Below are positions 183 to 30,204 of a stretch of DNA of 44,326 bases, one piece after another. A program made the position numbers and the translations under genes. Source of the stretch: Candidatus Parvarchaeota archaeon (GTDB taxonomy: Archaea > Nanobdellota > Nanobdellia > WJKC01). How positions within the stretch are numbered: position 1 is the stretch's first letter; the number at the start of each line of letters is the position of its first letter. The stretch covers positions 1 through 44,326 of the forward strand of contig JAUWZX010000004.1 in the NCBI GenBank assembly GCA_030615175.1, in the 5' to 3' direction. The notes under the pieces were generated by a model. It was given only the letters and a program-made list of their open reading frames with translations, did no database searches and was not told where the DNA came from.

Positions 183-211
183 ATTACCGGACAAGGGGAT
201 ACGGGGTATCC
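183..211 (+). promoter_or_regulatory. 29-bp conserved operator-like motif, copy A, upstream of TATA box (TTTAAAAA 218-225) of dam gene
   Basis: ATTACCGGACAAGGGGATACGGGGTATCC; 23/29 positions invariant across copies at 6726 and 30176; contains perfect GGATAC-N3-GTATCC palindrome. Confidence 0.8.
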
Positions 212-253
212 AAACACTTTAAAAATGAAATACATTAAAGAAATGAGAGGATA

Positions 254-1093
254 ATGAAACAAATAAATAGTTATAAAATACCAATTATAGTTAAGTGGGC
301 TGGAGGTAAGACACAATTACTTGAACAATTAAACAAATTCTTTCCCAAAAAAATTGAAAACTACTATGAACCATTCGCTGGCGGCGGAGCCGTGTTTTTC
401 TACATTAAACAAAAATTTAAACCAAAAAAAATAATAATCTCCGACATTAACAAAGACCTAATTAACACATATTTACAAGTAAAGAGTAATACAAACGAAT
501 TATTAAAACTATTAAGAATTCATCAAAAGAAACATTCAAAACAATATTATTATCAAATAAGAGACAGGTTTAACAACAATAAAAAATTAACTGTTCAGCG
601 AGCAGCTGACTTCATTTACTTAAACCATACCTGCTTTAATGGTTTATACAGAGTAAACAGCAAAGGAAAATTTAATGTTCCGATTGGCAGTTACAAAAAC
701 CCAACAATAGCAGACGAAAAAAGACTAAAGAGAGCAAGCAAATTATTACAGGGAGTAATCATAAAATGTCAAGATTACAAAGAAATGATAAAGAATATTT
801 CAGACAAAACCTTCATCTACTTAGACCCTCCTTACTACCCCTTAAATAATACATCCAATTTCACCAGTTACACAAGTAATGGTTTTGGGAAGAGAGAACA
901 AAAAAAACTAGCCATCTTCTTTAATGAATTAAGTAAAAGAGGTGCAAAAGGAATGCTTAGTAATAGCAACACGGATTTCATTAAAGGATTATATTTTAAT
1001 TTTGGTATTCACGAAGTGCTTGCTAAGAGGGCGATAAACTCAAAAGCTGAAGGGCGAGGAGCAATAAGTGAATTACTAATTACTAACTACTAA
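254..1093 (+). CDS. dam: Dam/DpnM-family (D12 class) N6-adenine DNA methyltransferase, probably GATC-specific
   Basis: KWAGGK, EPFAGGGAV (motif I), FNGLYRVN..G.FNVP.G, YLDPPY (motif IV), ELLITNY C-terminus. Confidence 0.92.
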   Translation: MKQINSYKIPIIVKWAGGKTQLLEQLNKFFPKKIENYYEPFAGGGAVFFYIKQKFKPKKIIISDINKDLINTYLQVKSNTNELLKLLRIHQKKHSKQYYYQIRDRFNNNKKLTVQRAADFIYLNHTCFNGLYRVNSKGKFNVPIGSYKNPTIADEKRLKRASKLLQGVIIKCQDYKEMIKNISDKTFIYLDPPYYPLNNTSNFTSYTSNGFGKREQKKLAIFFNELSKRGAKGMLSNSNTDFIKGLYFNFGIHEVLAKRAINSKAEGRGAISELLITNY

Positions 1094-1109
1094 AACCACA
1101 TTTTTTCTA

Positions 1110-1595
1110 TCACCTAAAGGTTGCAGCACTTACAACCCTGAAAAGGTCGTCATGGTTTCCTAAGAATGTCTGGAAAAGCCTTAAATTTAGCGTCCCTGTC
1201 GGGTAATTAGTTACTTCTTGGATCATGATTAATTCAATAACTACTAATAAGAATTCAATGGAGTAAACACCAAAATCATTCAATTCTTCGAATTCCTTAA
1301 TGCCTTCCTTATTAAATATTTGTAATTTAGGAGGGAATTCCTTATTGGGCTTAATTTTCTTTATTATGTTACTTATAATGTAATCAACGAAGCTAAGAGT
1401 CAATATTTCATTTCTTGCAAGCTTCATGTAAAGGTCAATAATAACATGAACATGTTTGGGCGTTCTGAGGCGCTTGTTTGGTTCTTTATACCTCACTTTA
1501 AAGTCATGCTTTGATTTCTTACCTTGTTCACAATAAATCTTAACACCATCAGAGGTAATGTATACTAATCCCCTCTGAACCTTAACTTTTTCCAC
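1110..1595 (-). CDS. Hypothetical protein convergent with dam; possible restriction/defence partner
   Basis: 161-aa ORF, GTG start, motifs TPKHVHVIIDLY and IQEVTNYP; context only. Confidence 0.65.
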   Translation of the reverse strand: MEKVKVQRGLVYITSDGVKIYCEQGKKSKHDFKVRYKEPNKRLRTPKHVHVIIDLYMKLARNEILTLSFVDYIISNIIKKIKPNKEFPPKLQIFNKEGIKEFEELNDFGVYSIEFLLVVIELIMIQEVTNYPTGTLNLRLFQTFLGNHDDLFRVVSAATFR

Positions 1596-1758
1596 ATGAA
1601 ATTAAACAAGAAGGTTACTTAAATTAATTTTCATATAACTGAAATCACTTTATTCAAAACTAAAAAATCATAATCCGTAGAAAAAAGCGAAGGTGCTTAT
1701 AAAGCCTTCAGAACCAGACAGTAAGAACTATATTAAACACCTCCTTTTAGTTCTAAAC

Positions 1759-2325
1759 ATGAATCTTAATGAAGTAATGAGTAGAATTAAAAAAAATAAG
1801 GGCAAGGAAATGCCTTCTAAACAAGGGATTTATGTAATCTTTGCAAAAAACCCTTTTAATTTAGTGTTCACCGATGTTTGTAAAGACCAGATAGTTTATG
1901 TTGGTGAAAGCAAAAATCTTAATAACAGACAAGTAAAAAATCACTTTAGAAATGGTAGGACTGGTTCTTCAACATTGCGCAGATCATTAGGTGCAATTTT
2001 TAGAGAAAGTTTTAATTTGAAATGTTACTTACGTGGAAAAAAAATTGATAAGAGTAAAGGTTATAGATTTGATGATAAAGGAGAATCGAGACTTACTAAA
2101 TGGATGATAAAAAATCTTTCAGAATCCTTTTGCGTGACAAGTAATAGTAAAAAAACTAGAGAAACAATTGAGAAAAAAGTTATTGCCTGCTTACCTAAAA
2201 AACCCATTTTAAATTTAAAAAAAATAAAACATGAACATATTAAGCAAATTAGAGAAATGAGAAAAGTTTGTAGAGAAGAAGCTAAGAGAAATGGTCTAAA
2301 GGTTGAACACGTAAAAGAAAAATAA
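1759..2325 (+). CDS. GIY-YIG nuclease family protein
   Basis: GIYVIF...VYVGES..L..R..NH, SSTLRRSLGA, late E...P.LN; ATG at 1759 preferred over GTG at 1693. Confidence 0.85.
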   Translation: MNLNEVMSRIKKNKGKEMPSKQGIYVIFAKNPFNLVFTDVCKDQIVYVGESKNLNNRQVKNHFRNGRTGSSTLRRSLGAIFRESFNLKCYLRGKKIDKSKGYRFDDKGESRLTKWMIKNLSESFCVTSNSKKTRETIEKKVIACLPKKPILNLKKIKHEHIKQIREMRKVCREEAKRNGLKVEHVKEK

Positions 2326-2384
2326 GTGATTAAGAATTTATTAGAGAGGTTGAGAATCAATTAACTTTACCGGACAAAGAATCA

Positions 2385-2409
2385 ACCCTTCGAACCTTTG
2401 GTTCGGGTC
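2385..2409. terminator. Stem-loop between convergent genes (CGAACC-TTT-GGTTCG core)
   Basis: Perfect 6-bp stem at 2391-2405 extendable with ACC/GGT; followed by an A-tract. Confidence 0.4.
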
Positions 2410-2432
2410 CATACCAAAAAAAGATTCTTTTA

Positions 2433-3263
2433 TTAACTTATTTTTAAATTTTCAGAAAAAAACATTACTTCTTCCCCTTTAGTCGTCTTTCCTGCACTAT
2501 AGTTTAATGAAAAAATATCATGTCTATAATTACTGTACAAACTTTTTATTATGTTTGCATTATCGTATGTTAATATCCATTTTTGCTTTTTTATTTTATT
2601 TATCTCTTTACATATGGCCAAATGGTCTTTATACTCATAATAATTAAAATAAAGTTCTTTGCCTTTGGTGTAATAAGGTGGGTCTAAATAGAATAAAGTT
2701 TTTTCTGAAAGTTTTTTACGGAGAATAGGTATCAATTTAATAGCATCCTCATTATGTAATTCAATTTTATCTTTATGTGATGCAATAAATTTAATTTTAT
2801 TAATTAATTCTTTTTTATTATATCTGGAATTTATTTTCCATTTACCTTTTTGTTCTTTCCCACCTATAACTCCTGCGTTTATAATTCCAGAAATATTTGT
2901 CCTATTTAAAAAAAAAGTGGAAAATCCTAAAGAAAGTAAATCAGCATTTTTTTGAGACTTTTGTATCTTTTTTTGTTTTTCCCAATTTTTAATATTAATA
3001 GGGGTTTTTTTAATTAATTCACATAATTTTTCAGTCTTGTTTAATACAGAGTACCAGAATGCATAAATTGAAAGGTCTATATCATTAATAATAATTTGGG
3101 ACGTATAACCTTCAAAAAGAAGTGAAAGAGCTACTGAAGCACCACCCGCATAAGGTTCAATATATACTCCTCCTTTTAAATCATTTTTTTCAATAATTTT
3201 TTTAAAATAATTAACAATCTTATATTTTCCTCCAGGGTATCTAAGTGGAGAATAAAATGTCAT
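2433..3263 (-). CDS. Second D12-class DNA adenine methyltransferase
   Basis: SPLRYPGGK, EPYAGGASVA, FFLNRTN.SG, YLDPPYY; ATG at 3263 overlaps the upstream stop (ATGA). Confidence 0.92.
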   Translation of the reverse strand: MTFYSPLRYPGGKYKIVNYFKKIIEKNDLKGGVYIEPYAGGASVALSLLFEGYTSQIIINDIDLSIYAFWYSVLNKTEKLCELIKKTPINIKNWEKQKKIQKSQKNADLLSLGFSTFFLNRTNISGIINAGVIGGKEQKGKWKINSRYNKKELINKIKFIASHKDKIELHNEDAIKLIPILRKKLSEKTLFYLDPPYYTKGKELYFNYYEYKDHLAICKEINKIKKQKWILTYDNANIIKSLYSNYRHDIFSLNYSAGKTTKGEEVMFFSENLKIS

Positions 3264-4570
3264 TTTTTCCTCTTTTTTTCTATTTCTGCAATCTTTTCCC
3301 AAATTATTTCAAAAAACTCCTGCAAATTATCCCACTTATATATTAAATCAACAGGAACGGGTTGAGTTCTAAACGAATGCACATATTCATGAAAATTATT
3401 AATTGAAAGTATAGAACTCCCTTTATTTGTTACTGCCCTAATATTTTTTAGTTGTTTTTTGTTGACCCCTTCTTTTTCTAAAATTTCTGTTACTTTTGTG
3501 ATTTTTCCTGCAAGTTTAATATTTTTACCAAAAGATGAACCAATTTTTTCAGCATAAAAGTCTAAACTAGTTTCTAAAAAAACTCTAAATAATACTGCAA
3601 TTGCGTTAGTCCCCTTATCTAGTAGAAGAGACTTTAATTCATGATAGATATTATTAATCTTTGTTTCATGTATCCTTAATATACATGTAGAAGGGATAAG
3701 AGTATTTCTGCTACTAGATTTTGGGAGACTTTTCTTACGTTTAATTTTGCTTTTTTCAGCAACTCCTTTAGAGGAAATAAACATCCTTACTCTAGATCTA
3801 TTTGGTTTTTCTCCAAAAAGGTTTTTCATAAATCTAATCTTTTTTTCGGTATTATATACTTCTCTTACAGGAACATTTTCTATAATAATTTTATTAAATA
3901 AAATATCTAATCTTTCAACTACTTCTTTTTTTAGAGCAGTTAAAAAAACCTTTCCATTAACAATATCTAAACCTAAAAAAGATCTAGATTCAGGATTTGT
4001 CAAAATACGTTCAATAGTAGTAACTTTTAATTTATCTGTATTTATTTTAGATTTAGTTTCTCGTTCAAAGAAAGTTATAACTTTCATAGTAGGAGATATT
4101 TTTCCTTCAAATTTAAAACCAAATCTTTCCTGTTCTGCAGTCCCCCATGGATCTAAACCTACCCCTTTATTTTTGCCTGTATGATCTAATTTAATCCATT
4201 TTGAAGCTTCTTCTTCGGTTTTGTATATAAAACAATTTACCTTTTTAGGAATATTTGCCTTTTTGGTAATTTTAACAAATTTTTTCTTTAAAGATTCAAT
4301 TTTTATCAATGAAAGATCCAATAAGCACTTGATAGCTGTAGCCCTTCTATTTCCATCTAAGATCAAAAAGAGATTATTTTTTATTTCTAAAACCCTAAAA
4401 TCTTTTGCTTTATCTAGTCCATTTTCAACAATATGCTTCGCTAAATTTAAAATTTCTGATCCTTTCTCTTCCAACATTAAATTAATGGCCTGGTTCTGGC
4501 CTTCTACAGGATCAAATCGGTAATTATATGGATTAACAATTAGCTTATCAATAGTAATCTTTTTCTTCAT
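3260..4570 (-). CDS. ParB/Srx-like N-terminal domain plus putative HEPN-like C-terminal domain; defence protein
   Basis: NP.N.R and ILDGNRRATAIK (ParB-like); AVLFRVFLE.SL...NFHEYVH (HEPN-like); translationally coupled to methylase. Confidence 0.72.
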   Translation of the reverse strand: MKKKITIDKLIVNPYNYRFDPVEGQNQAINLMLEEKGSEILNLAKHIVENGLDKAKDFRVLEIKNNLFLILDGNRRATAIKCLLDLSLIKIESLKKKFVKITKKANIPKKVNCFIYKTEEEASKWIKLDHTGKNKGVGLDPWGTAEQERFGFKFEGKISPTMKVITFFERETKSKINTDKLKVTTIERILTNPESRSFLGLDIVNGKVFLTALKKEVVERLDILFNKIIIENVPVREVYNTEKKIRFMKNLFGEKPNRSRVRMFISSKGVAEKSKIKRKKSLPKSSSRNTLIPSTCILRIHETKINNIYHELKSLLLDKGTNAIAVLFRVFLETSLDFYAEKIGSSFGKNIKLAGKITKVTEILEKEGVNKKQLKNIRAVTNKGSSILSINNFHEYVHSFRTQPVPVDLIYKWDNLQEFFEIIWEKIAEIEKKRKK

Positions 4571-4693
4571 TAATTTTTACTAAAAGACAATAATATTAAA
4601 ACATATCTCTGATTAAATATCTGTTCAAATTATTCTTTTGGGAATATTTTTGTCAATAAAATATTAAGGGATGGGCGCGCTCATGGTTGATTT

Positions 4694-5224
4694 ATGGGTT
4701 TGGAAAAAGCGTTGAAGGATTATGGAAAACACTTGAAGGCGTATCGCGAGGCGCTAAGAGAGGAAGAGGCATTAAAAAAGAGCGAAGAGGAAAGATTCTG
4801 GAATCTGGAGAGAAAGAATTACGGGGAAAAATTAACACAGGCAAAAGAGATATGTGAATGGGTAAAAGCGTTCACGAAAACAAAAGAATACAAAGAAATA
4901 ATAAAGCACTTCGAGGCATACGACTTAATGAAACTAGGCGGGATAAGCGACGGCCTGATAATACACAACGGAGGATGGGGTCACAAACACAAAGACTCAC
5001 GCGGCTGCTGGTCAAGAATCTACCTAAACCAGAACGGAACACTAAACTACAAAGCATGGTATAAATGGCTTGGAATAAAAACCACGCTAAAACTAAAGAA
5101 ACCAGAAGACCTAGCAGGAAAACTAAACCAGGAATACATAAATGAACTGCACAAATCAATAATTACAGGCGAAATAATAAGAACCCTTGACAAAGAAATA
5201 AAAGAAGAAATAAAAAGACTATAA
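4694..5224 (+). CDS. Hypothetical protein
   Basis: 176-aa ORF, ATG start, host-like codon usage. Confidence 0.75.
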   Translation: MGLEKALKDYGKHLKAYREALREEEALKKSEEERFWNLERKNYGEKLTQAKEICEWVKAFTKTKEYKEIIKHFEAYDLMKLGGISDGLIIHNGGWGHKHKDSRGCWSRIYLNQNGTLNYKAWYKWLGIKTTLKLKKPEDLAGKLNQEYINELHKSIITGEIIRTLDKEIKEEIKRL

Positions 5225-6688
5225 CTGATATTTCTTACCTTCATTCACTAACTTCACTTTCTTATGAACTTCCTTATAGAGCTCAGGGAATTCAGTGTGA
5301 ATAGGAATAAGCAATTTAGGGTTAATGGATTCAACCATTTTGAAAAGGTGATTGCCAGAAGCGTGGCCAGAAGCATGAATCTTATTCTGAGGATACAAGT
5401 TGAACTTGCGAAGCCAGTTATTAATACGCTTCTCATCAAGCTCCATTTCCTCACTAAAAGGCTCGCAAATACTCCTGATGTGAACACTGCCAGGAACAGG
5501 CTGAATGTCAAGCAAGTTATTCAATTGAAAATAATTCATGAAGACAACGTATTTGCCCTGATTCTTACTAATATCCCCCGCAGTCACGACATTAGATTGA
5601 TTCAGATACTCCTTCTCCCAGGACTTGTAATCACGAGCAACCTGCTCCTCAGGCACGCCAGTCCTGCCAATCAAACCCCAACCCTTACGAGGAAAAAAAA
5701 TCTTAATAAACTCATCATCAGAAGCAGGCAGTTCAGTAACGCCCTCCAAACGCAATAAGTCCAATAACAATGCCTGACGCGACTCAATCACAAGAGAACG
5801 ATTATTACTAACCGCAGTCTTATAAAAAGTAAGCAAGCGGTCAGTATCACGAATAGGGAAATTAGCAATCACAACACCCTTCTTATCCTTAATAAGCTTG
5901 GTTGACTGTTTCTCAACATAACCCTCGGTACGGGCAGAGGAATCCTTAATACGCGTGCCCTCAGATAACATGCAAACCGGCTCTGACTCAGCCGCCTTCT
6001 CAACAAAATAATCACTCCAATCCTTATGACGACCATGAAAACGCAAATCACCAGTATAAATAACGTTGCCAATCGAAGTATTAATAACAAAACCAGCAGC
6101 TCCAGGCAATGAATGATCAACACGATAAGGAGTAACCTCTAAATTACCAATCTTAAAAGGCTTATTAAAAGAGAAATCATTAACAACACGCTCCTCCAAA
6201 CCATCACGAGCAGTGCGCCTCTTAACCCCATCACTACGCTTCTTAGGAATGAAAATGAAAGAAGGATTAAACTTGCAGAAATCATTATAAGCCCCTCCGC
6301 CAACAGTATCAAACAAACTCATAATCGCCTTGCTCTCAGGACTAACGTGAACAGGAATATCCCTGCGCAGAAAATGAACATAACCAAGATGGTCAAGATG
6401 AGCATGACTGATAAGGACGCCGTCAACAGAATTCCTCTCAGAATAATTAAGACCATTATGCTTGCAGTAATCACGCCTGTAAATCCCCTTCAAATCAGGA
6501 AGCATGCCCAAAGCAATTAAATCCTTAATACTGGAAAACTTGCGCGGAGGCATGAACTCAGTGAAATAAGACGCCTGCTCTTCAAAATTCATCCCGAAAT
6601 CCAATAGAATACGAGTACCCTTATCCTCCAAAAGAATCTTATTACCGCCAATCTTGCCCACTCCGCCATAAAAAGACAATGAAGTCAT
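5219..6688 (-). CDS. Metallo-beta-lactamase/beta-CASP fold nuclease (RNase J-like)
   Basis: FYGGVGKIGGN, LDFG, SHAHLDH, VDHS, YTGD, HASGH, PIHTE. Confidence 0.9.
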   Translation of the reverse strand: MTSLSFYGGVGKIGGNKILLEDKGTRILLDFGMNFEEQASYFTEFMPPRKFSSIKDLIALGMLPDLKGIYRRDYCKHNGLNYSERNSVDGVLISHAHLDHLGYVHFLRRDIPVHVSPESKAIMSLFDTVGGGAYNDFCKFNPSFIFIPKKRSDGVKRRTARDGLEERVVNDFSFNKPFKIGNLEVTPYRVDHSLPGAAGFVINTSIGNVIYTGDLRFHGRHKDWSDYFVEKAAESEPVCMLSEGTRIKDSSARTEGYVEKQSTKLIKDKKGVVIANFPIRDTDRLLTFYKTAVSNNRSLVIESRQALLLDLLRLEGVTELPASDDEFIKIFFPRKGWGLIGRTGVPEEQVARDYKSWEKEYLNQSNVVTAGDISKNQGKYVVFMNYFQLNNLLDIQPVPGSVHIRSICEPFSEEMELDEKRINNWLRKFNLYPQNKIHASGHASGNHLFKMVESINPKLLIPIHTEFPELYKEVHKKVKLVNEGKKYQL

Positions 6689-6725
6689 AAGAAATGAATA
6701 ACACAATTAACTTATAAACGTTTAT

Positions 6726-6754
6726 ATTACCGGAAAAGAGGACACTAGGTATCC
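6726..6754 (+). promoter_or_regulatory. 29-bp operator-like motif, copy B, upstream of TATA box (TTTAAAGT from 6762) of exonuclease gene
   Basis: ATTACCGGAAAAGAGGACACTAGGTATCC. Confidence 0.8.
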
Positions 6755-6777
6755 GTTAATATTTAAAGTATTAATGA

Positions 6778-7383
6778 ATGACAACACAAATGACTCTCCA
6801 CTACCTGGACATTGAAACATGCAGGAAAACACCTGAGAATGATGAAAGAGACGGATTCAACCCTCATAAAGGAAAAATAATCACCATCCAATACCAGCCA
6901 ATAGATAAAAGAACAGGACAACTAACAGGCAAACTAACAATACTAAAGGAATGGGAATTAGGCGAGAAAACAATGATTCAGCAATTCAAACCAGTATTCC
7001 TAGGATACAATCATCCAATAACATGCTTTGAATTCACGCCAGTTGGATACAACCTGAAATTCGAAATAGACTTCCTAAGACATAAATTAATAGAACACTG
7101 CAACCTCGACAGGAGACCACACCTGTTATGGACTAAAAAACCAATCATAGACTTATTCAGCTCAGTCGTTATTGCAAACAACTGCAACTTCAAAGGAGCA
7201 AAACTAAACAATTTCAGCTCAAAAATACATGACGGAAGCATAATAACACAATTATATGAAAACAAGCAATACGACGAAATCATAAAATACATAAAAGATG
7301 AAGCAGAAGGATTCTCAGAAATACTGAAAAAATTAATCAGAACACTGCCAGGAATACTAACATCAAAAAGCTTAAATACATAA
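6778..7383 (+). CDS. Stand-alone RNase H-fold 3'-5' exonuclease (DnaQ/PolB proofreading-like); start may be 6790
   Basis: ExoI YLDIET, ExoII GYNLKFEIDFL, IIDL, ExoIII YIKDE. Confidence 0.82.
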   Translation: MTTQMTLHYLDIETCRKTPENDERDGFNPHKGKIITIQYQPIDKRTGQLTGKLTILKEWELGEKTMIQQFKPVFLGYNHPITCFEFTPVGYNLKFEIDFLRHKLIEHCNLDRRPHLLWTKKPIIDLFSSVVIANNCNFKGAKLNNFSSKIHDGSIITQLYENKQYDEIIKYIKDEAEGFSEILKKLIRTLPGILTSKSLNT

Positions 7384-7402
7384 AACAAGAAGAATAAACC
7401 CA

Positions 7403-7978
7403 ATGAACAATTATAAACGCGCGCCAGAAGGCGGAATAATAAAATTCGATTACTCAGACCCTGTAAAAGGGATAAGAATCAAGAATGAAATACTCGTTGA
7501 CAGTGAAAAAGCAGTAATGAAAGAAGAAATAGAGCATTACAAGACAAACAAACTAAAAGTAGTAAGGCTGGATAAAGTAAACAGGGAAGAACAATTCCCA
7601 TGCTTCAATGAAACTAAAGGACCAGTAGACATGAAAGCAGAATACACAGAAGAACAATTCCTTAACATAGAAATAGAACTATCACAGGAAAACGGTCAAT
7701 GCTGGCTTCATGAAGAATCAATAAAAAGACTTGAAAACATGATAGGAATCGAACTAACACAACAGGACAACAAGCTTAAAGGAAGCGAATTATACATGAT
7801 GCTAATAAACCAGGATGATGAAGGCAACATGATGCCTAAAAGAAACCTTAGAATCAGCAGGGGAGCAAGCGACCCTCACCCGCCAGGATACTACCAGTTA
7901 TTCATAATAATAATGGATACATGGGAGTACGTCAGAAGACAAGTGAGAGCAGCAATTACAGTAGATTTAATTAAATAA
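7403..7978 (+). CDS. Hypothetical protein
   Basis: 191-aa ORF 19 bp downstream of exonuclease. Confidence 0.7.
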   Translation: MNNYKRAPEGGIIKFDYSDPVKGIRIKNEILVDSEKAVMKEEIEHYKTNKLKVVRLDKVNREEQFPCFNETKGPVDMKAEYTEEQFLNIEIELSQENGQCWLHEESIKRLENMIGIELTQQDNKLKGSELYMMLINQDDEGNMMPKRNLRISRGASDPHPPGYYQLFIIIMDTWEYVRRQVRAAITVDLIK

Positions 7979-8935: not shown

Positions 8936-8973
8936 ATCATTAATACTTTGAAAGAATTAATTTTTAAATGTTT

Positions 8974-9387: not shown

Positions 9388-9444
9388 AAAACATAATTAA
9401 CTTAATGAATGATATAAAACATTTGTTGTTCCACAACAAAGATT

Positions 9445-9897: not shown

Positions 9898-9932
9898 AAT
9901 GATAGATATTAAGTGAGAAGTATATAAAATTA

Positions 9933-20782: not shown

Positions 20783-20958
20783 AATTCATAATTAAAGGAG
20801 AATTCAGAATGAAAGGAGAGAAACAGAAATTCTGCAAAGAAGTAGCCGCCAGCAATGAAGCACAAGCCATGGAAAAAATATACGCTGACCTTGGAAGCAA
20901 TCATAAAGTGAAAAGGAGATTCATAAAAGTGGAGGAGATAAAACATGCCGAAAAGTGA
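20779..20958 (+). CDS. rplX: 50S ribosomal protein LX (L18Ae/eL20), not in ORF track
   Basis: MKFIIKGEF...KFCKEV.A...AMEKIYADLGSNHKVKRRFIKV. Confidence 0.93.
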   Translation: MKFIIKGEFRMKGEKQKFCKEVAASNEAQAMEKIYADLGSNHKVKRRFIKVEEIKHAEK

Positions 20959-21367: not shown

Positions 21368-21372
21368 TAATA

Positions 21373-22296: not shown

Positions 22297-22302
22297 TTAA
22301 TT

Positions 22303-22725
22303 CTAAAAAATTAATAAAACACCTAACAAGAATATTGAAGTCTCAAAAGCAAGGTAACGCTTATTCTTCACTATGTCCTTAATAAAATTTATAGGATTAT
22401 CATATTTCTTATTACTGCTCTTGTAAATAAAGAACTCCTTATCACTAAGCGGGTAAAATAATTTAATGCCGGGATAAGTTGTTAAGTCAACAAGCAAGTG
22501 AAGCATAATGCCAATAGCCACTGGAATTGAAATAAAAGCAATAATTAACGGAATGAACATTGAATGCAAAAACGTTCTGTGATTCTTACGATAATCAAAG
22601 CCAAAAAAGTAAGGCAAAGCGTCAAAGTCAGGCAGCAAACTGCCAATAATAACTAATAATGGATTCAAATCAGCCAGCCTTGAAAAAATAAGTCCAACAC
22701 CGAAATGCCCTGGGAATGCAAGCAT
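22303..22725 (-). CDS. Membrane-bound metal-dependent hydrolase (YdjM-like)
   Basis: GSLLPDFD, HRTFLHS, LHLLVD, G..LFYP. Confidence 0.88.
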   Translation of the reverse strand: MLAFPGHFGVGLIFSRLADLNPLLVIIGSLLPDFDALPYFFGFDYRKNHRTFLHSMFIPLIIAFISIPVAIGIMLHLLVDLTTYPGIKLFYPLSDKEFFIYKSSNKKYDNPINFIKDIVKNKRYLAFETSIFLLGVLLIF

Positions 22726-22782
22726 GATTCAATATCTGATAAACCGAACATTTAAAAAGTTAAAGGATTATTTCTAAAGTCC

Positions 22783-24147: not shown

Positions 24148-24281
24148 AGTGCACTAAATGCAAGAAGAAAATTAAAACAACATTCCTGAACAAGATTATA
24201 GGCACATACATTAAAGGAAAACCCTACTGCAAGGACTGCCAGAAGAAAATAAATAAGAAAATAAAAAAAATTACTTCTTAA
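24144..24281 (+). CDS. Small zinc-finger protein (45 aa), not in ORF track
   Basis: ATGA overlap with srp54; MKCTKCKKKIKTTFLNKIIGTYIKGKPYCKDCQKK... Confidence 0.8.
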   Translation: MKCTKCKKKIKTTFLNKIIGTYIKGKPYCKDCQKKINKKIKKITS

Positions 24282-24549
24282 TCAAAGGACACCAAGTTAA
24301 TACACAGTTATAAGTCAATGCGAAAATTAATCCGAAAACGAATCCATCAATAGCAGCCCATAAAGCGCCAATAAAGATTCCAATCAAAGTCACGCTATAA
24401 CCAATGTAAAGACTGCTAATAGAACTCACTAAAGGAGTAGCCCAGCCAAACAAACTAATAACTCCAAGCAATACAATACCAATAGTCCACGTGATTAACG
24501 AAGCACCACTAAAAGCCCACACATTTAATTTAGGCAACCTCGAAGCCAT
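24271..24549 (-). CDS. Small membrane protein (holin-like family)
   Basis: 92 aa, hydrophobic, SLYIGYS.T.IG..IG.LWA.IDG. Confidence 0.7.
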   Translation of the reverse strand: MASRLPKLNVWAFSGASLITWTIGIVLLGVISLFGWATPLVSSISSLYIGYSVTLIGIFIGALWAAIDGFVFGLIFALTYNCVLTWCPLIKK

Positions 24550-24588
24550 GAAAGATTATTAATCATTAAAGCATTTAATACTTTGCTC

Positions 24589-24942
24589 ATGAAAGGCATT
24601 TACATACTGTTAATAAAGATTAAAAAGAACTTAAAAATAAAGATTGGCTCACTCGGAGTCATTGAATTTAACAAAGGCTGCTATGCTTACGTTGGCTCAA
24701 GCCAGAATAACTTAATAAAAAGAGTGCACAGGCATTACTCAAATAATAAGAAGATTCACTGGCACATTGACTACTTACTCAATAATGATGAAACAGTTAT
24801 TAAAAGCGTTTACTGCAAGGAATTAAGCAAGGAATGGGAATGCAGGATTGCCAAGGAATTAAGTGATAAAGGAGAAATAGTGCAAGGATTCGGGAGCAGT
24901 GACTGCAAATGCAGCAGTCACTTAATTAAAATAGGAATGTAA
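24589..24942 (+). CDS. GIY-YIG nuclease, DUF123 family
   Basis: KGIYIL, YAYVGS, RV.RH, HWHIDYL, GFGSSDC.C.SHL. Confidence 0.92.
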   Translation: MKGIYILLIKIKKNLKIKIGSLGVIEFNKGCYAYVGSSQNNLIKRVHRHYSNNKKIHWHIDYLLNNDETVIKSVYCKELSKEWECRIAKELSDKGEIVQGFGSSDCKCSSHLIKIGM

Positions 24943-24943
24943 T

Positions 24944-26407
24944 CTAGTACTCCCTTGCAATGTAAACAACGCTTTCAGCCTTACTGCCGCACGCAACGCA
25001 CTTAGTCCACGGCCGCTCCTCAACATCAATCCTCACGCCCCTCACTTCAGCAGTTAAATCACTCTTAATCTTATTAGCGCACTTAAAACCATTCATGCCA
25101 ATAGAACAATAAGATGCCCTGGCAATCCTCCTGTCACCAATCACCTTCTTTAACCCGGAATAATCATTAACAGTCACAATACAATCCTTAAACTCCTTGT
25201 CAGCCTGCCTGATTAAAGTACTGGTGATTTCATCACCCAGCTTCCTAATACCCTTTAATGCAGACCTCTTAATCACCTTCTTCGTTCTCAAGTCACGCCT
25301 ATAAACAGTAACAGTCTTATTTTTAACTTCTTTAACTCCAACCTCAAACCTTACTGGAACTCCCTTCATCTCCCAGTAATAATACTTACTCCCAGGCATT
25401 TTATCACCATCATCAATCACAACCCTTAAACCATTCTTTACTAACTCACCCTTCAAGTCATTACAATACTTCAAAACTGCCTTCTCAGAACCCTTACTGA
25501 TTATTGGAATAATAATGACCTGCACAGGAGCGAGATTGAAAGGCAGTCTTAAACCATTATTATCACCATGCACTGCAATAAGAGAAGCATAAATCCTTGA
25601 AATAGCAGGTCCATAACAAGTCTGCCAGCCATACCTCTTCACCTCATCCTTATCAGTGAAAGTAATATTAAACGGTTTAGAAAACTTCTGTCCAAGCAAA
25701 TGAGTTGAAGGCTGCTGCATTACCTTGCCGTCAGGCATTACCACATCACAAGCATAAGTGTACTCAGCGCCAGGGAACTTATCCCACTCAGGCCTCTTAA
25801 AGTGAATGAATGGAATGCCAAAAACACCACTAATAACCCGCTTGGACATCCCTAAATCCTCCCTCACCTGAGCCTCCGCTTCCTCACGGGAAGCGAAAAC
25901 GTCATGCGCCTCAATCCAGTAAAACTCCCTTGTCCTAATGAACGGTTTAGTGGCCTTAGTCTCCCACCTGAAAACATTAGCGCGCTGATACAACTTTAAC
26001 GGCAAATCCTTCCAACTCCTAACCCATAACTCATACATCTGATAAAAAGCAGTCTCTGAAGTTGACCTGAGCGCATACCTCTGCCCAAGTTTCTTGCGCT
26101 TACCAACCTCTGTAACAAAAATTAATTCAGGCATGAATCCAATAACGTGCTCCGCCTCCTTCCTATAACTTGACTCAGGAATTAATAAAGGAAAATAACA
26201 AGGTTTATGACCAGTTAACTGCAGCTCCCTCTCATAAATATCATACATTAACTCCATCGTTATAACTGACCACGGCCTGAAAACGTAAAACCCCTTAAGA
26301 TTATAACGGTCATCAACTAATTCAGCAACCCTGACAATAGTATTATACCACTTTGAAAAATCCTTCCTCTTATTAATATTAAATGTTTCAACATCCTTCC
26401 CAGCCAT
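24944..26407 (-). CDS. proS: Proline--tRNA ligase (archaeal/eukaryal type)
   Basis: RSTSET, FRWE.K...PFIRTREF, HLLGQKF, C-terminal zinc domain ending Y. Confidence 0.97.
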   Translation of the reverse strand: MAGKDVETFNINKRKDFSKWYNTIVRVAELVDDRYNLKGFYVFRPWSVITMELMYDIYERELQLTGHKPCYFPLLIPESSYRKEAEHVIGFMPELIFVTEVGKRKKLGQRYALRSTSETAFYQMYELWVRSWKDLPLKLYQRANVFRWETKATKPFIRTREFYWIEAHDVFASREEAEAQVREDLGMSKRVISGVFGIPFIHFKRPEWDKFPGAEYTYACDVVMPDGKVMQQPSTHLLGQKFSKPFNITFTDKDEVKRYGWQTCYGPAISRIYASLIAVHGDNNGLRLPFNLAPVQVIIIPIISKGSEKAVLKYCNDLKGELVKNGLRVVIDDGDKMPGSKYYYWEMKGVPVRFEVGVKEVKNKTVTVYRRDLRTKKVIKRSALKGIRKLGDEITSTLIRQADKEFKDCIVTVNDYSGLKKVIGDRRIARASYCSIGMNGFKCANKIKSDLTAEVRGVRIDVEERPWTKCVACGSKAESVVYIAREY

Positions 26408-26487
26408 GAATGCTTAGAAGATGATAATAACTTAAAAAACTTACTTAACACAGCATTTTTTCGAAAAGATTATTAAACTAATCATCC

Positions 26488-27831
26488 ATGATTTATAACT
26501 CAATGATTGAATCAATTAAGAAAACAATAGCTGATAATAACATCAAGTTCGTGCGATTACTATTCACCGACATATTCGGCAAATTAAAAAGCTGCGAAAT
26601 ACCTATAGAACGCCTGCAAAAAGCCTTAAATGAAGGAATTGGTTTTGACGGCTCATCAGTTCAGGGATGGACAAGGGTTCATGAAAGCGACATGCTGTTA
26701 AAACCAGACATTAAAACCTTCAGAATCCTAAGTTATAAAGAACAGCAATTAACGCGCACAGCAGGCATTTTCTGCGACATAGTAACCCCTAACAACCAGC
26801 CATTTGAAGGAGACCCCAGATTCATTCTAAAAAAAGTCCTGGCTGAAGCTGAAAGCATGGGCTTAGAGTACAGGACAGGACCAGAACTTGAATTCTACTT
26901 ATTCAAGAAAACAGACCTTGATGAAGGACGCGTCAAGCCATTAGACGCAGGAGACTACTTTGACCTGGCACCACTAGACAATAGCGCGAGTATTAGGAAA
27001 AGAATAATTAATGCTCTTGAAAGAAGGATAAGAGTGCCTGTTGAAATGAGCCATCATGAATGCGGTCCAGGCCAGCATGAAATTGACATAAAGTACGGGC
27101 AAGCCATTAACATGGCTGACAGCATCATGCTGTCAAAATACCTTATTAAAAGGATTTGCTCTGATGAAGGATTATACGCTTCTTTCATGCCAAAACCCGT
27201 TTACGGCATCCCTGGTTCAGGAATGCACATTCATCAAAGCCTGTGGAGTAAAGGAGTTAACGCATTCCACAAAGAAGATGACAAATACAGGTTAAGCAGA
27301 ACAGCATACAGCTTCCTTGCAGGGCAGTTAAAACACATTAAAGCCATAACCTGCATTACTAACCCAATAATTAATTCTTATAAACGATTAGTCTCAGGCT
27401 TCGAAGCACCAGTCTATATCTGCTGGGCTAGGATGAACAGGTCAGCGCTCATTAGAATCCCATTAAGCAAGAATGATAAAAGCACCAGGCTTGAATTAAG
27501 AAGCCCTGACCCCTCATGCAATCCATACTTAGCCATGGCAGTCATGCTCAAAGCAGGGATTAACGGCATTAAAAACAATCTTAAACCATCAAAACCAATC
27601 GAAGAAAATGTTTATGACTTCAATAAAGCAAAACTAGCCGAGCACTACATTAACACGCTGCCAAAAACAATTCATGAAGCAACCATGGAACTGAAAAAAG
27701 ATGAAACAGTGCAAAGCGTTCTAGGCAAATTCATAACAAACAAGATAATAGAAGCCAATGAAACCATCTGGAAAGAATACAGCACTCAAGTAACTGATTA
27801 TGAAATTAAAAAATACCTGCCAATACTATAA
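26488..27831 (+). CDS. glnA: Glutamine synthetase type I
   Basis: FDGSS, GPELEFY, HHE..PGQHEI, FMPKP, GSGMH, NRSALIR, ELRSPD. Confidence 0.96.
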   Translation: MIYNSMIESIKKTIADNNIKFVRLLFTDIFGKLKSCEIPIERLQKALNEGIGFDGSSVQGWTRVHESDMLLKPDIKTFRILSYKEQQLTRTAGIFCDIVTPNNQPFEGDPRFILKKVLAEAESMGLEYRTGPELEFYLFKKTDLDEGRVKPLDAGDYFDLAPLDNSASIRKRIINALERRIRVPVEMSHHECGPGQHEIDIKYGQAINMADSIMLSKYLIKRICSDEGLYASFMPKPVYGIPGSGMHIHQSLWSKGVNAFHKEDDKYRLSRTAYSFLAGQLKHIKAITCITNPIINSYKRLVSGFEAPVYICWARMNRSALIRIPLSKNDKSTRLELRSPDPSCNPYLAMAVMLKAGINGIKNNLKPSKPIEENVYDFNKAKLAEHYINTLPKTIHEATMELKKDETVQSVLGKFITNKIIEANETIWKEYSTQVTDYEIKKYLPIL

Positions 27832-27865
27832 TTAATCATCAAATAATTTACTACTAATATCATGA

Positions 27866-28588
27866 TTAATCATCCAGAAATCTTAAGGACTTCAACTCCC
27901 CTTCCTCCTCCTCCATTAAAGCCTCCTTAACGCCCGCAGTGCATGATAATTTATTCCTTATTAACCATAAATCTGAAGGAATCACCTTCTCTTTACCTAA
28001 CCCTTTAATGCTGAACCATTTAAGTCTTCCATGACCAGACTCCTTAAAACGCGCAGGGCATTGTTCTGGCATCATGACTTTAGTGAAGAATAAAATAAAA
28101 CCATGCTTAATCATGCCGCCATCCATAACCCTCTCATGCAGCACAGCATTCAATGAAGAGTAATTCACATTCAACGAAGTCTTAGTCCTGACCAGCCTTA
28201 ATGCAGCATCCTTAAAACTCTCCTCTAAACCCATCTTGCCCCCAATCATGCCCCAGTAACCCTTATACGGCCTCTTATTCCTCTTAATTAAAAGAATCTT
28301 ATCATCATTAATAATGGCTGCAAGCACGACTGGCAGGACGCCAACCATGCTCCCAGTTATGTAAGGGAACACCGGCATGTACTTCTCAGCATTCTTAGTT
28401 AACTGATAATAATCACCTTTCTTCTCTATTAAACCATGCTCCACTAGTATTCCTAAATGATAAGCAATCATGTTAGAACGTATTCCAACCCCCTTCTCTA
28501 TTTCACTAAACCTCAACCTGGTCTCGTTCAGAAACAATTTAAATATCTGTTCCCTCTCCTCCTTAACAAGACTCCCCGAGTGATTCAT
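27866..28588 (-). CDS. Winged-helix plus Nudix-like domain protein (putative nucleotide-sensing regulator)
   Basis: RFSEIE...SNMIAYHL..L...GLI; degenerate Nudix box GG.....E....AALRLVRTKTSL. Confidence 0.82.
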   Translation of the reverse strand: MNHSGSLVKEEREQIFKLFLNETRLRFSEIEKGVGIRSNMIAYHLGILVEHGLIEKKGDYYQLTKNAEKYMPVFPYITGSMVGVLPVVLAAIINDDKILLIKRNKRPYKGYWGMIGGKMGLEESFKDAALRLVRTKTSLNVNYSSLNAVLHERVMDGGMIKHGFILFFTKVMMPEQCPARFKESGHGRLKWFSIKGLGKEKVIPSDLWLIRNKLSCTAGVKEALMEEEEGELKSLRFLDD

Positions 28589-28615
28589 TATTACTCAAAT
28601 TAATTCGAGGAATAA
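28588..28615. promoter_or_regulatory. 28-bp palindromic operator between divergent Nudix genes
   Basis: TTATTACTCAAATT|AATTCGAGGAATAA, 12/14 pairs. Confidence 0.6.
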
Positions 28616-28651
28616 CTTAAATACTTTTTCATAATAAATTACAAAATTAAA

Positions 28652-29140
28652 ATGAATATTAACAAAGCGCATTACGTTGTTGTTACAGGCATAATCATAA
28701 AGGACGGGAAATTCTTAATCACTAAAAGAGCGCCAACAGAAAAAGCATTCCCGAACTTATGGACTGTCCCTGGAGGCAAATTAGAATTAAAAGATTATGA
28801 AGGCAGGCAGAAAGACACTAACTCCCACTGGTATAACATATTTGAAGAATTACTGAAAAGAGAGGTTAAGGAGGAAACGAGTCTGGACATTAAGAACATT
28901 AAATACTTAACAAGCCTTGTTTTCATAAGACCTGACGGAATACCAACAGTAGTTGTCAGCTTATTCGCAGAACACTATAATGGTGCAGTAAAATTAAATG
29001 ATGAGTCAATAGATTACGCCTGGGTGACATTAGATGAAGCAAGAAATTATGAATTAATTGACGGGATTTACGAAGAACTGGAAATGCTTGACAAGCACTT
29101 GAAAGGAGGGCAAATAATTGAATGGAAAAAAAGAATTTAA
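28652..29140 (+). CDS. Nudix hydrolase
   Basis: WTVPGGKLE...insert...[11 protein letters not shown]. Confidence 0.9.
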
Positions 29141-30138
29141 TCCTCAATTCCCTTCTCAGTGACCCTGAAAATGCATTCACCGTCAGGAAGGCATGGACTA
29201 TCTATTAAGCGCGCTATCCTCTTATCGCCACGGGACTTGCGCAAGTACAGTCTGTACGTCGAGGCGTGCGCAAGTATGTTCCCACCGACAGCAGTGGTTG
29301 GGTCTCCGAAGAAAACATCAGGACGCGAAATGGCTTGATTAGTCACGAAAACTGCAATATTATAACGGTCAGCAAGCCGTTGAAGCAAGTGCAAGTGCTT
29401 GTTCAGTTTCTGCTGTCGGTCAGCCAGAGTGCCCCTGCCAATATACTCAGCGCGGAAAAGGCCTGTAAGTGAATCAATAATAATTATTTTAATAGGCCTG
29501 CCTTTCTTTTCTATTAAATCAGGAATTTTCTCAGCCAACAGCATTTGATGGTCTGTTGAGAACGCGCGGGCAACATGAATGCGGGATAATACTTTCTTAG
29601 GGTCAAGACCTCTGTGGCGCGCTAATTCATCAATTCGCCTGGTGCGGAAAGTATTCTCAGAATCAATAAGTATTGCGTCACCATCAAGACCGCCATCCTT
29701 CTCAGGTAACTGGACAGTAACGCATAACTGGAATGCTAATTGCGACTTTCCTGAACCAAACTTACCGAATACTTCTGTAATGCTCTGACTTTCAATGCCT
29801 TTACCGCCTAATAACTTGTCAAACTCATTGCTGCCAGTAGTTACGTAAGTCATAGAATCATTCTTCTCCATTAACTCAATGCCTGTTAAGAAATTCATAT
29901 TAAGACGCGAGCGCGCTTCATTAACTATTTTACGAGCAGTTGCCTCGCCAAGGTCAGCAGCGTCAGCAACTTCCCTGACAGGAGCAGTAGCTAAAGCCAT
30001 TAAGTCAATGAATCCTGCCTCTTCAAGTTTTTCAGCAGTCTTCGGGCCAACACCAGGCAAGGTCTCAATATCAACTACTTCAGGACTATCAATTACTTTC
30101 GGACTATCAATTACTTCTTCCTTGTCCTTTTCAGCCAT
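29137..30138 (-). CDS. radA: DNA repair and recombination protein RadA
   Basis: LPGVGP Hh[43 protein letters not shown]. Confidence 0.97.
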
Positions 30139-30175
30139 GATTAAGAACTTAAAAAGGAGTACTTAAAAAAGATTT

Positions 30176-30204
30176 GGATACCCTGTGTCCTGTTTTCCGG
30201 TAAT
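30176..30204 (-). promoter_or_regulatory. 29-bp operator-like motif, copy C, upstream of radA TATA box
   Basis: Reverse complement ATTACCGGAAAACAGGACACAGGGTATCC, followed by AAATCTTTTTTAAGTA and radA ATG. Confidence 0.82.

Follow-up and report, generated by a model that had tools for sequence, protein, structure and literature searches.

The window, by which we mean the whole 44,326-nt stretch of archaeal DNA analysed here, carries three copies of a 29-bp box. Copy 1 (183..211, + strand; ATTACCGGACAAGGGGATACGGGGTATCC) lies 6 nt before a TATA element at 218-225 and ahead of a Dam-type methylase gene that encodes a D12-class N6-adenine DNA methyltransferase (254..1093, + strand; PF02086, E 7.1e-71). 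Copy 2 (6726..6754, + strand) precedes a TATA element at 6761-6768, again by 6 nt, and the gene of a predicted RNase-H-like nuclease (6778..7383, + strand; PolB-exo-like, PF13482 family). Copy 3 (30176..30204, - strand) stands 5 nt before the TATA element at 30162-30170 (- strand) and ahead of the recombinase gene radA (29137..30138, - strand; PF08423, E 5.1e-85). Re-reading of the window returned exactly the positions and sequences given by the initial annotation, a recount gave the same 23 invariant positions out of 29, and the downstream genes are those that it had named (Dam methylase, 3'-5' exonuclease, radA). Its statement that the boxes are intergenic and oriented toward the downstream gene holds for all three. 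It had placed them 6-8 bp from the TATA element; the fixed short spacing stands while the range was slightly generous, the gaps to TTTAAAAA, ATTTAAAG and TTTTTTAAG being 6, 6 and 5 nt, respectively. With as many as 3 mismatches allowed, a degenerate pattern of the three boxes matches the window at exactly these three places, and it has no match in any of 100 dinucleotide-preserving shuffles of it. A core-only copy, TTTACCGGACAA (2366..2377, + strand), lies between convergent genes with no TATA element at the right distance and is probably not a functional site.

The nuclease encoded by 6778..7383 has no Pfam, PHROG or NCBIfam match of its own. Many of its 55 homologues carry PF13482 (RNase_H_2), some are named RNase H-like or PolB/epsilon-like, and an alignment of 12 sequences shows no variation at residues D11, E13 and D125. 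Translation probably begins at the ATG at 6790, since the homologues start at M5. A 191-aa gene without a family match (7403..7978, + strand) follows 19 nt downstream on the same strand and is likely co-transcribed. At the other end of the set, radA is divergent from a 132-aa gene, also without a family match (30254..30652, + strand), and the box lies within the 115-nt intergenic region common to both; this arrangement is not kept upstream of radA in a genome of the same genus (G001). Copy 1 is part of a 227-nt segment with 90% identity to the beginning of contig C2. The window opens with the 3' end of a duplicated small gene (1..172, + strand), which continues from the ends of contigs C1 and C5; this repeat accounts for the contig break and for the twin of copy 1 at C2:184.

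Seven copies of the box are present in the 1.0-Mb genome. A weight matrix built from the six strong copies scores these at 39-46 bits and the next best site in the 1.015 Mb scanned at 13.6 bits. The seventh copy has ATTACCGGA, CTATCC and the TATA distance in common with the other six. All seven are intergenic, within the roughly 8% of the genome that a crude ORF map leaves non-coding, all are co-oriented with the downstream gene, and all end 5-7 nt before a TATA element. The genes behind them are radA, a gene for the Hef helicase (NF010337, 624 bits against a cut-off of 610), a repair-linked DUF4130 gene (Pfam match), the Dam-type methylase gene, a gene for an HNH protein matching phrog_1035 (endonuclease VII) that is followed by a C5-methylase (Dcm) gene (Pfam match), the RNase-H-like nuclease gene and a conserved 47-aa ORF. 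In this genome the genes for NurA and primase have no box. The genome scan that the initial annotation had proposed thus came out in favour of its reading: every copy precedes DNA-metabolism genes at a fixed TATA distance, as befits a promoter-linked cis-element common to recombination, repair and DNA-modification genes rather than chance or a mobile repeat. The full 29-mer is absent from every other genome searched, and the exact box pattern has a single, chance match in two public contig collections, in a bacterial coding region.

The box had been described as bipartite, a dyad followed by a GGAYAC-N3-GTATCC palindrome. The conserved part is the asymmetric 5' core; the 3' palindrome occurs in 4 of the 7 copies only (the three of the window and C2:184, not the other three) and is not kept in relatives. 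The box reads better as a series of 8-nt-phased, GGAMA-type words, ACCGGAAA / nRGGACAC / nnGGTATCC. The 5' core is ATTACCGGAMA in this genome and TAnYGGAMA in its class-wide form. It starts either 24-28 nt or 34-36 nt before the TATA element, two classes that are one word apart.

In relatives, TAnYGGAMA occupies the same promoter position before radA, hef, the DUF4130 gene and the small ORF. It is found before radA, DUF4130 and the small ORF in each of the three other genomes of the family (before the small ORF also in G020). Of 22 relatives read at hef, G003, G004, G006 and G009 have a clear core and G002 a degenerate one. The most widely conserved target is radA, whose core is kept in at least seven families; the expectation that a diverged box should stand before radA in close relatives was borne out in genomes of the same genus and family and of several other families. 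In other genera the core persists at orthologous promoters amid diverged flanks, and in most relatives its 3' edge lies at least 12 nt upstream of the TATA element. One relative, G009, has a second regulon of this kind. Searching it for AATACCGGCCAAC at up to 1 mismatch yields 11 sites, against 0 for the reversed control, and all 11 start 24-26 nt before a TATA element and are oriented toward the gene. These genes encode Hef, RadA, NurA, a fused primase, a DUF763 protein, an ArdC-N-like protein, a DUF1016_N protein and a cold-shock-domain (CSD) protein; the remainder are a 39-aa ORF followed by a 194-aa gene (NYN-like by reading alone) and two unknowns. Membership of the regulon therefore differs between lineages, NurA and primase having the core in G009 and no box in the present genome. 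Fixed orientation and TATA distance (7/7 copies here, 11/11 in G009), together with conservation of the core amid diverged surroundings, are the marks of an archaeal upstream activating site.

Which protein might read this site? The initial annotation proposed an unidentified regulator. That the box serves a regulator still appears likely; as to its identity, there is now a concrete candidate, a short Orc1/Cdc6 paralogue of 347 aa (C5:221505-222548). It has intact Walker A (GRPGIGKT) and Walker B (DEAD) motifs and passes TIGR02928 (193.7 bits against 181.3). Its best match in a PDB comparison is S. solfataricus Cdc6-1, to which it aligns over its full length (E 3.6e-33); A. pernix ORC2 gave E 9.8e-10, so that this comparison places the paralogue no nearer to a protein of the Orc1-2 clade than to Orc1-1 types. 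We take PDB 1w5s to represent the Orc1-2 clade. The Cdc6_C winged helix is not recognised by Pfam in the paralogue. Its flanking intergenic gaps measure 51 and 31 nt and so leave no room for an origin beside it. The true Orc1-1 (E 3.5e-96) is encoded elsewhere, with a classic origin whose different ORBs (TTCCAyaTGAAGt.aGGGG) cluster around an AT-rich stretch upstream of orc1-1 (L072:4305-4693); neither this gene nor the origin has a box. The genome thus possesses a second, non-initiator Orc1/Cdc6 protein, as is the case in Orc1-2-type regulons. Of the 90 genomes of the class sampled, 56 have an orthologue at E 2.5e-49 or better.

The promoter of the paralogue gene contains the lineage-matched core twice, once abutting the TATA element and once inverted between TATA and ATG. 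This geometry, which differs from that of the targets, is kept in families f1, f3, f10 and f14, and the core overlaps a TATA element or start site only here and at a tRNA-Val gene. A matrix trained only on radA and hef upstream regions has inverted matches scoring 8 bits or more, no further than 90 nt from the paralogue gene, in 8 of 20 genomes, the expectation being 0.055 per search window; in a second batch, paralogue promoters reached 8 bits in only 5 of 37. A matrix-free comparison asked for words shared at 10 or more of 11 positions by the radA and paralogue promoters of one genome. Such words were found in 12 of 48 genomes, against 6.3% of cross-family promoter pairs, and none of 5000 permutations reached 12/48. 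In 9 of the 12 the shared word is the core itself.

The distribution of the paralogue points the same way. A radA core of at least 11 bits with a TATA element occurs in 16 of 48 genomes that have the paralogue and in 0 of 29 that do not (Fisher p 1.6e-4, kinship ignored). The matrix detects no radA core in the other 32 genomes with the paralogue. It was trained on the first 24 relatives, whose scores are therefore partly circular; outside the training set, 11 bits are reached in 6 of 33 genomes that have the paralogue and in none of 24 that lack it. Since the genomes lacking the paralogue come mainly from three families, there are few independent contrasts. Site by site, co-variation of the radA site with the operator of the paralogue is mixed, the same-genome site being the nearest in G003, G009, G012 and G016 and not in G001, G004 and G023; for hef, the effect is weak.

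A spare Orc1/Cdc6 protein is likely to bind the box and would thereby control an SOS-like network of genes. In its full form, the reading that we favour and hold to be on balance probable is that the 29-bp box is a promoter element of seven genes, read by the Orc1/Cdc6 paralogue, which would co-activate them and repress its own gene. A sequence-specific protein would sit on the box words directly upstream of BRE/TATA, where it would most plausibly help TFB and TBP onto promoters that have no conserved BRE position. Activation, rather than repression, is plausible from the position of the box and the unconserved BRE region only. The paralogue, as candidate reader, would switch the targets on together, the predicted trigger being DNA damage or replication stress. 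Bound to the cores at its own TATA element and start site, it would block TFB or RNA polymerase; negative autoregulation is proposed because the core lies at the TATA element and between TATA and ATG of this gene.

An operator in the paralogue promoter is no proof of a regulatory role, as a boxed gene may be a mere target. It is conceivable, if somewhat unlikely, that the cis-element and regulon are as described while another DNA-binding protein, for example a small wHTH or RHH protein, reads the box, the paralogue being one more target. Word sharing between radA and paralogue promoters would be expected of any regulon member, Pfam does not see a Cdc6_C winged helix, and many paralogue-bearing genomes have no detectable radA core. 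However, no transcription-factor gene is found among the seven boxed genes or the 11 of G009, barring the cold-shock-domain protein of G009 only. The peculiar site geometry at the paralogue gene, conserved in four families, and the restriction of radA cores to genomes with the paralogue also speak for the latter as reader, and an Orc1-type regulator has an experimental precedent (PMC6061795).

The same parts might instead answer to the cell cycle or replication, not to damage, forming an S-phase-type regulon under an Orc1-family protein; this we regard as unlikely. Proteins of this family are tied to replication initiation, the G009 set includes a replicative fused primase beside repair genes, and methylases and restriction-type nucleases are not classic damage genes. 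On the other hand, radA of Halobacterium, which has a motif upstream of its TATA element, is UV-induced (PMC2556686). The stable centre of the regulon is, moreover, radA and hef, which serve recombination and the repair of forks, and no box is found at the replicative Orc1-1 gene or at the origin.

It is improbable that the box is the operator of a LexA-like repressor placed against the BRE, which would silence the genes for as long as damage does not dislodge it. Because the box ends just 5-7 nt from TATA, a protein covering all of it could also mask the BRE, and the GGAYAC-N3-GTRTCC dyad of 4 of the 7 copies is of the type used by dimeric repressors. Yet this dyad is not kept in relatives, whereas the conserved part is asymmetric and strictly gene-oriented in all 7 copies here and all 11 in G009. 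Archaeal activator sites usually lie 12 or more nt upstream of TATA, which is where the 3' edge of the core is found in most relatives; overlap with TATA or start is limited to the paralogue's own gene and the tRNA-Val gene.

Very little probability attaches to the box being the promoter class of an alternative basal factor, either one of three TBP paralogues or a truncated TFB-like protein. The core begins 24-36 nt upstream of the TATA start, a distance beyond known TBP/TFB contacts, and an element of a basal factor would not be expected in inverted form on the downstream side of TATA, where the core occurs at the paralogue gene. The idea arises from the gene content (three genes for TBP, one for a complete TFB, and an ORF of 177 aa that has one TFIIB repeat) and from Sulfolobus, where the truncated TFB3 is reported to be a damage-response activator (PMC6101594).

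Scarcely credible is a dispersed repeat without a role in transcription (a mobile-element end, recombination site or ORB-like replication element): copy 1 and C2:184 do lie in a duplicated contig-end segment adjoining restriction-modification genes, and the layout of the box is loosely ORB-like, a dyad plus a G-run, but only the contig-start copies on C2 and C3 share flanks, the others having nothing in common beyond box and TATA, all copies have one orientation and one TATA distance, orthologous promoters in other genera keep the core despite diverged surroundings, and no copy adjoins an AT-rich unwinding region, which the true origin has together with its different ORBs. A MITE or att site was likewise rejected, there being no repeat beyond the motif except in those two contig-start copies and no variation in location or orientation relative to genes.

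Gene regulation in DPANN archaea is almost unstudied. The analysis supplies a cis-element of known sequence, the genes that it may control and a specific candidate for the regulator; recombinant protein and synthetic promoters would suffice to test each of them, with no need for a culture. The regulon flags DUF4130, DUF763, the PF13482-family nuclease and the conserved 43-55-aa ORF as likely players in DNA maintenance, and it connects restriction-modification-type genes with the recombination machinery. A literature search found no paper on such a box or on a DNA-damage or recombination regulon in DPANN.

The bacterial LexA/SOS system is similar in that one cis-element ties a recombinase gene to repair genes and to the gene of the regulator, here a candidate. 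LexA boxes, however, are promoter-overlapping palindromes that act by repression, whereas the present core lacks symmetry, keeps one orientation and lies upstream of the core promoter. It is not a LexA-type SOS box, its 3' dyad being neither general (4/7 copies) nor conserved. ORBs, to which Orc1-1 binds at archaeal origins, have in common with the box a short dyad with a G-run a few bases on, and the proposed reader belongs to the same protein family. The genome's own ORBs nevertheless differ in sequence and show no likeness beyond this loose layout; they surround an AT-rich element only upstream of orc1-1, while the boxes occur singly at scattered loci, each in a fixed relation to a TATA element, and so are not an ORB cluster.

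The motif of the Halobacterium radA1 promoter (2008, PMC2556686) also lies upstream of TATA, has an internal short repeat, has radA as lead target and is common to several further genes of DNA metabolism; that study did not name a regulator. It differs in sequence and repeat period, and UV induction was measured there while the present box is known from sequence. The present case adds a candidate for the regulator and a broader set of genomes for comparison.

Along with this motif, the closest parallel is the Sulfolobales Orc1-2, a protein that recognises a motif in promoters and is the driver of the response to DNA damage (Sun et al. 2018, PMC6061795, with follow-ups in PMC9738581 and PMC12490963). 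For the Cdc6/Orc1-2 clade, see Raymann 2014 (PMC3914693). Both systems have a non-initiator Orc1/Cdc6 paralogue beside the replicative Orc1-1, a short asymmetric promoter motif common to a gene set, and the gene of the regulator (here a candidate) within the network. According to PMC6061795, the Sulfolobales motif is 5'-ANTTTC-3' within AATAGTTTCRGWDTACTCWS, as against TAnYGGAMA words here, so that the box is not a DDRE; it lies at -23 to -55 from the ATG rather than upstream of TATA; the targets are ups, ced and tfb3 rather than radA, hef and nucleases; and binding and damage response were established by experiment, where here both are predicted. If the paralogue does read the box, the Sulfolobales Orc1-2 response would be no crenarchaeal oddity but a widespread, possibly ancestral archaeal solution. 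We tentatively suggest, as a possibility at most, that archaea possess an ancient SOS-like circuit under the control of a spare origin-recognition protein. The box in DPANN would then be an operator derived from an ORB and composed of 8-nt-phased words; through it the paralogue would activate radA, hef and lineage-specific nucleases from a position upstream of TATA, and it would shut off its own gene by way of the sites at the TATA element and start site. The Orc1-2 network of the Sulfolobales, and perhaps also the radA1 motif of haloarchaea, would be diverged versions of one ancestral circuit, kept even in the smallest archaeal genomes.

The 29-bp box occurs in the window at 183-211(+), 6726-6754(+) and 30176-30204(-). 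The initial annotation's observation of the box is confirmed: re-reading of the sequence bears out the positions and letters of the three copies, as well as their intergenic location and their orientation toward the downstream gene. By our own count 23 of the 29 positions are invariant, and gaps of 6, 6 and 5 nt separate the copies from TTTAAAAA, ATTTAAAG and TTTTTTAAG, respectively. Searched with a degenerate pattern at up to three mismatches, the 44,326-nt window contains these sites and no others, and 100 dinucleotide-preserving shuffles contain none. The window is the complete contig C3 of a 1,015,312-nt assembly (36% G+C, 5 contigs), and scanning this genome with a script yields further copies at C2:184-212(+), C5:538782-538810(+) and C5:68988-69016(-). 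A seventh copy, at C5:70396-70424(+), retains ATTACCGGA, CTATCC and the TATA distance while its middle differs. With a weight matrix built from the first six copies, these six score 39-46 bits and the next genomic site 13.6 bits; since the matrix was derived from the same copies, only the score gap is informative. A crude ORF map leaves ~8% of the genome as non-coding, and all seven copies fall there. Each has the orientation of the next gene and stops 5-7 nt upstream of a TATA-like run, the spacer of 5-7 nt being different in every copy.

This conserved, oriented and TATA-locked element is common to recombination, repair and DNA-modification genes. RadA (PF08423, 5e-85) is encoded behind the box at C3:30176 and a D12 adenine methylase (PF02086, 7e-71) behind that at C3:183. 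The C5:68988 copy precedes a 500-aa Hef-type helicase consisting of the helicase part only (NF010337, 624 bits vs 610), and the C5:538782 copy a DUF4130 protein (PF13566, 3.8e-8) with a weak match to TIGR03915, 'putative DNA repair protein'. Behind the C2:184 copy lie genes for a 96-aa HNH-type protein (phrog_1035 endonuclease VII, 4e-5) and then a C5-cytosine methylase (PF00145), with a convergent ICEA-like gene. The C3:6726 copy is followed by a 201-aa protein and a 191-aa unknown, the C5:70396 copy by a 47-aa ORF that is kept in relatives. The 201-aa protein itself has no significant match in Pfam, PHROGs, NCBIfam or PDB sequences; its family was read from 55 homologues, many of which carry PF13482 (RNase_H_2) and some of which are named RNase H-like or polymerase-exonuclease-like. 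Residues D11, E13 and D125 are invariant in an alignment of 12 sequences. The earlier statement that all three genes in the window act on DNA holds because of these PF13482 homologues and invariant residues, which support the label '3'-5' exonuclease' at the level of the family only.

Several features surround the box copies. The C2 genes form a compact restriction-modification-type cluster (locus L003:264-2962), comprising the HNH protein, the C5-cytosine methylase, a 315-aa protein that is encoded convergently and matches ICEA weakly, and a wHTH-like gene of 87 aa. After the Dam methylase, window positions 1110-2325 carry a 161-aa unknown on the opposite strand and a 210-aa GIY-YIG nuclease (PF20815, 2.6e-20), possibly another modification and nuclease module. 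C2 and C3 are 90% identical over their first 227 nt and 99% over their last 182 nt (window 44145-44326). C1 and C5 have both of their ends in common with each other and overlap the C2/C3 start by ~22 nt (the contig ends of C1, C2 and C5 are loci L003, L004 and L005). The contig-end repeat consists of a duplicated ~100-aa gene (CxxC in the C-terminus) and a small divergent RHH-like gene; in each C2/C3 copy the box comes next, followed on C3 by Dam and on C2 by HNH plus Dcm as DNA-modification genes. At the C1 end (L004:3900-3960) an inverted repeat, TTACACAGT ... ACTGTGTAA, is seen by eye around the TATA of the duplicated small gene; the C5 copy of this gene lacks it. A conserved 43-55-aa ORF (MxGxxxYxDLMR...; L001:6461-6604, i.e. 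C5:70461-70601, and loci L133-L136) always has the box and adjoins a divergent tRNA gene. All four genomes of the family have it, the relative G020 has a weak match, and it may serve the regulon as a small effector. At L001:6658-6745 (C5:70658-70745) lies an 88-nt tRNA to which ARAGORN assigns a 4-base 'anticodon' (acaa); it scores 59.5 bits with the Rfam tRNA model and probably contains an intron.

The reading of the box as a dyad plus a palindrome was partly right, GGAYAC-N3-GTRTCC being found in four of the seven copies only. By eye, three words in 8-nt phase, ACCGGAAA / nRGGACAC / nnGGTATCC, fit better. The distance from the start of the core, the 5' part of the box, to the TATA box falls into two classes across the genomes, 24-28 nt and 34-36 nt, which are one 8-nt word apart; all seven copies of this genome belong to the long class, and their second word occupies the short-class position. 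A simple scan flags the palindrome with its T-run at window 30176-30190(+) as terminator-like, but the terminator reading was rejected, as no gene ends there and only four of the seven copies can form a hairpin. Two promoters have the core alone, hard against the TATA box: that of a tRNA-Val gene (C5:70361-70372), divergent from the seventh copy, and that of the short, 347-aa Orc1/Cdc6 paralogue. Another core-only copy, at window 2366-2377 between convergent genes, is probably non-functional. Four weak core-only matches were treated as chance because 53 intergenic matches in this genome score at least 9 bits. They lie at C5:611315 (no co-oriented gene downstream), C5:484452 (secreted membrane protein), C2:37297 (224-aa unknown) and C1:87358 (amidohydrolase-like gene).

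The exact box is absent from the 40 relatives searched, in which ATTACCGGA-N17-TCC gave single, unrelated-looking matches in three. In two public contig collections the 29-mer pattern found one chance site, which lies within Bacteroidota coding sequence and turned up 4 times. Despite this absence, the 5' core is kept at orthologous promoters of relatives. Upstream of radA it reads AATATCGGACAT in G001, ATTAGCGGACAC in G002, ATTAACGGACAC in G003, AATAGTGGACGC in G004, AATACCGGCCAA in G009, ATTACTGGACAA in G012, ATTAGCGGAAAT in G016 (followed 8 nt on by AATACTGGCCAAC), AATACTGGAAAC in G020, AATAGTGGACAC in G023 and AGTAGCGGAAGT in G024, each 22-34 nt upstream of TATA. At hef, read in 22 relatives, a clear core is present in G003, G004, G006 and G009 and a degenerate one in G002. 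Within the family (G000, the genome studied here, to G003) it precedes the DUF4130 gene in 4/4 genomes and the small ORF in 4/4, plus G020. TANCGGAMA-N11-12-STAT returned, in G001-G003, only the radA sites from which it was derived; this pattern was too strict, and the DUF4130 and small-ORF cores surfaced only via orthologue searches. ATTAMCGGACAC matches G003 without mismatch at DUF4130, hef and radA and with one at the small ORF. A third TTACCGGACA site in G001 was rejected as a promoter element because its location reads as coding.

Regulon content changes by lineage. AATACCGGCCAAC, at up to one mismatch, has 11 sites in G009 against none for the reversed control, and all 11 are situated 24-26 nt upstream of TATA. 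Their targets are Hef, RadA, NurA, a fused PriS-PriL-type primase, DUF763, an ArdC-N-like protein, DUF1016_N, a cold-shock-domain protein, a 39-aa ORF then a 194-aa gene (NYN-like in our own reading) and two unknowns. Fused primases are regarded, in a published study (PMC3914693), as a mark of nanosized archaea; the present genome has the orthologue, and its primase and NurA promoters carry no box. Of 24 relatives, only G009 has an orthologue of the 201-aa nuclease, with no evident box upstream.

There are three Orc1/Cdc6 genes in the genome. The 408-aa product is a genuine Orc1-1 (S. solfataricus Cdc6-1, E 3.5e-96), and a textbook origin lies upstream of its gene (L072:4305-4693, C5:117305-117693), with at least five ORB-like elements (TTCCAyaTGAAGt.aGGGG) inverted around a ~70-nt A/T stretch. 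These real ORBs are unlike the box in sequence, on which ground the reading of the box as an ORB was rejected. A third Orc1/Cdc6-like gene, of 455 aa (L131:2023-3390, C4:44023-45390), is on the separate 52-kb contig C4, which could represent a plasmid, a virus or an island and has core-like words, TACCGGACA, at C4:48754 and C4:52033. The second gene encodes a non-origin paralogue of 347 aa (C5:221505-222548), which passes TIGR02928, aligns over its full length with Cdc6-1 (3.6e-33) and retains the Walker A and B motifs; the intergenic gaps beside its gene are of 51 and 31 nt only. Its promoter, ATTTTACCGGAAACA-TTAATAA-CACTTAACGCGTCCTGTAACATC-ATG, carries the core word in a different geometry: a forward core abuts the TATA box and a second core, inverted and one-off (complement TTACAGGACGC), separates TATA from the start codon. 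This arrangement, built on the word particular to each lineage, is found in G001-G005, G009, G012, G016, G023 and G024 and, in a second batch of genomes, in the families f3, f10 and f14. ATTAGGGGAAAG precedes both radA and the paralogue gene in G071, as does ATTACTGGACAA in G028 and G058.

With a matrix trained on radA and hef upstreams only, inverted matches of at least 8 bits occur within 90 nt of the paralogue gene in 8/20 genomes (0.055 expected per search window); the second batch gave only 5/37. A matrix-free comparison, requiring a common word (at least 10/11, at least 4 G/C) in the radA and paralogue promoters of one genome, found one in 12/48 genomes vs 6.3% of cross-family pairs, a level reached in 0/5000 permutations. 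The word is the core in nine of the 12; the other three look like chance. A simpler site-by-site comparison had a mixed outcome. Paralogue orthologues (E 2.5e-49 or better) occur in 56/90 sampled genomes of the class. After removal of two ambiguous genomes, and of any whose radA upstream could not be used, a radA core scoring 11 bits or more, with TATA at 20-38 nt, was found in 16/48 genomes with the paralogue and 0/29 without (Fisher p 1.6e-4, uncorrected for kinship), or 6/33 and 0/24 outside the training genomes, the genomes without it being mostly from three families and thus offering few independent contrasts.

The earlier reading of a regulon is well supported by this comparative evidence; the identity of the regulator, the sense in which it acts and the signal to which it responds are inferences. 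The paralogue would bind the box words. From a site upstream of BRE/TATA it would assist TFB/TBP in loading onto promoters without a conserved BRE position. TFB or RNA polymerase would be its competitors at the paralogue's own promoter, where the result would be negative autoregulation. Archaeal regulators commonly activate or repress according to where they bind. The genome encodes three complete TBP paralogues (C5:304813-305334, C5:638545-639066, C5:249415-249936), one full TFB and a 177-aa ORF with a single TFIIB repeat (C5:710547-710756), many basal-factor genes for 1 Mb. The radA-hef core, together with the Halobacterium and Sulfolobus systems, suggests DNA damage as the signal, although a cell-cycle or replication signal may act instead.

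A literature search that covered main texts turned up no account of a regulon of this kind in DPANN or Woesearchaeota-type archaea. In Halobacterium, TTTCACTTTCA is located upstream of the TATA box of the UV-B-induced radA1 and three other genes; other haloarchaea and Methanospirillum have it upstream of radA (PMC2556686). Orc1-2 of Sulfolobus islandicus is described as footprinting on 5'-ANTTTC-3' and as required for damage-induced expression (PMC6061795), and Orc1-1 and Orc1-2 are regarded as ancient paralogues (PMC3914693). Because the box differs from the DDRE and the paralogue is at most a candidate member of the Orc1-2 clade, the DPANN box system is not classed as a member of the Sulfolobus Orc1-2 system but would work like it.
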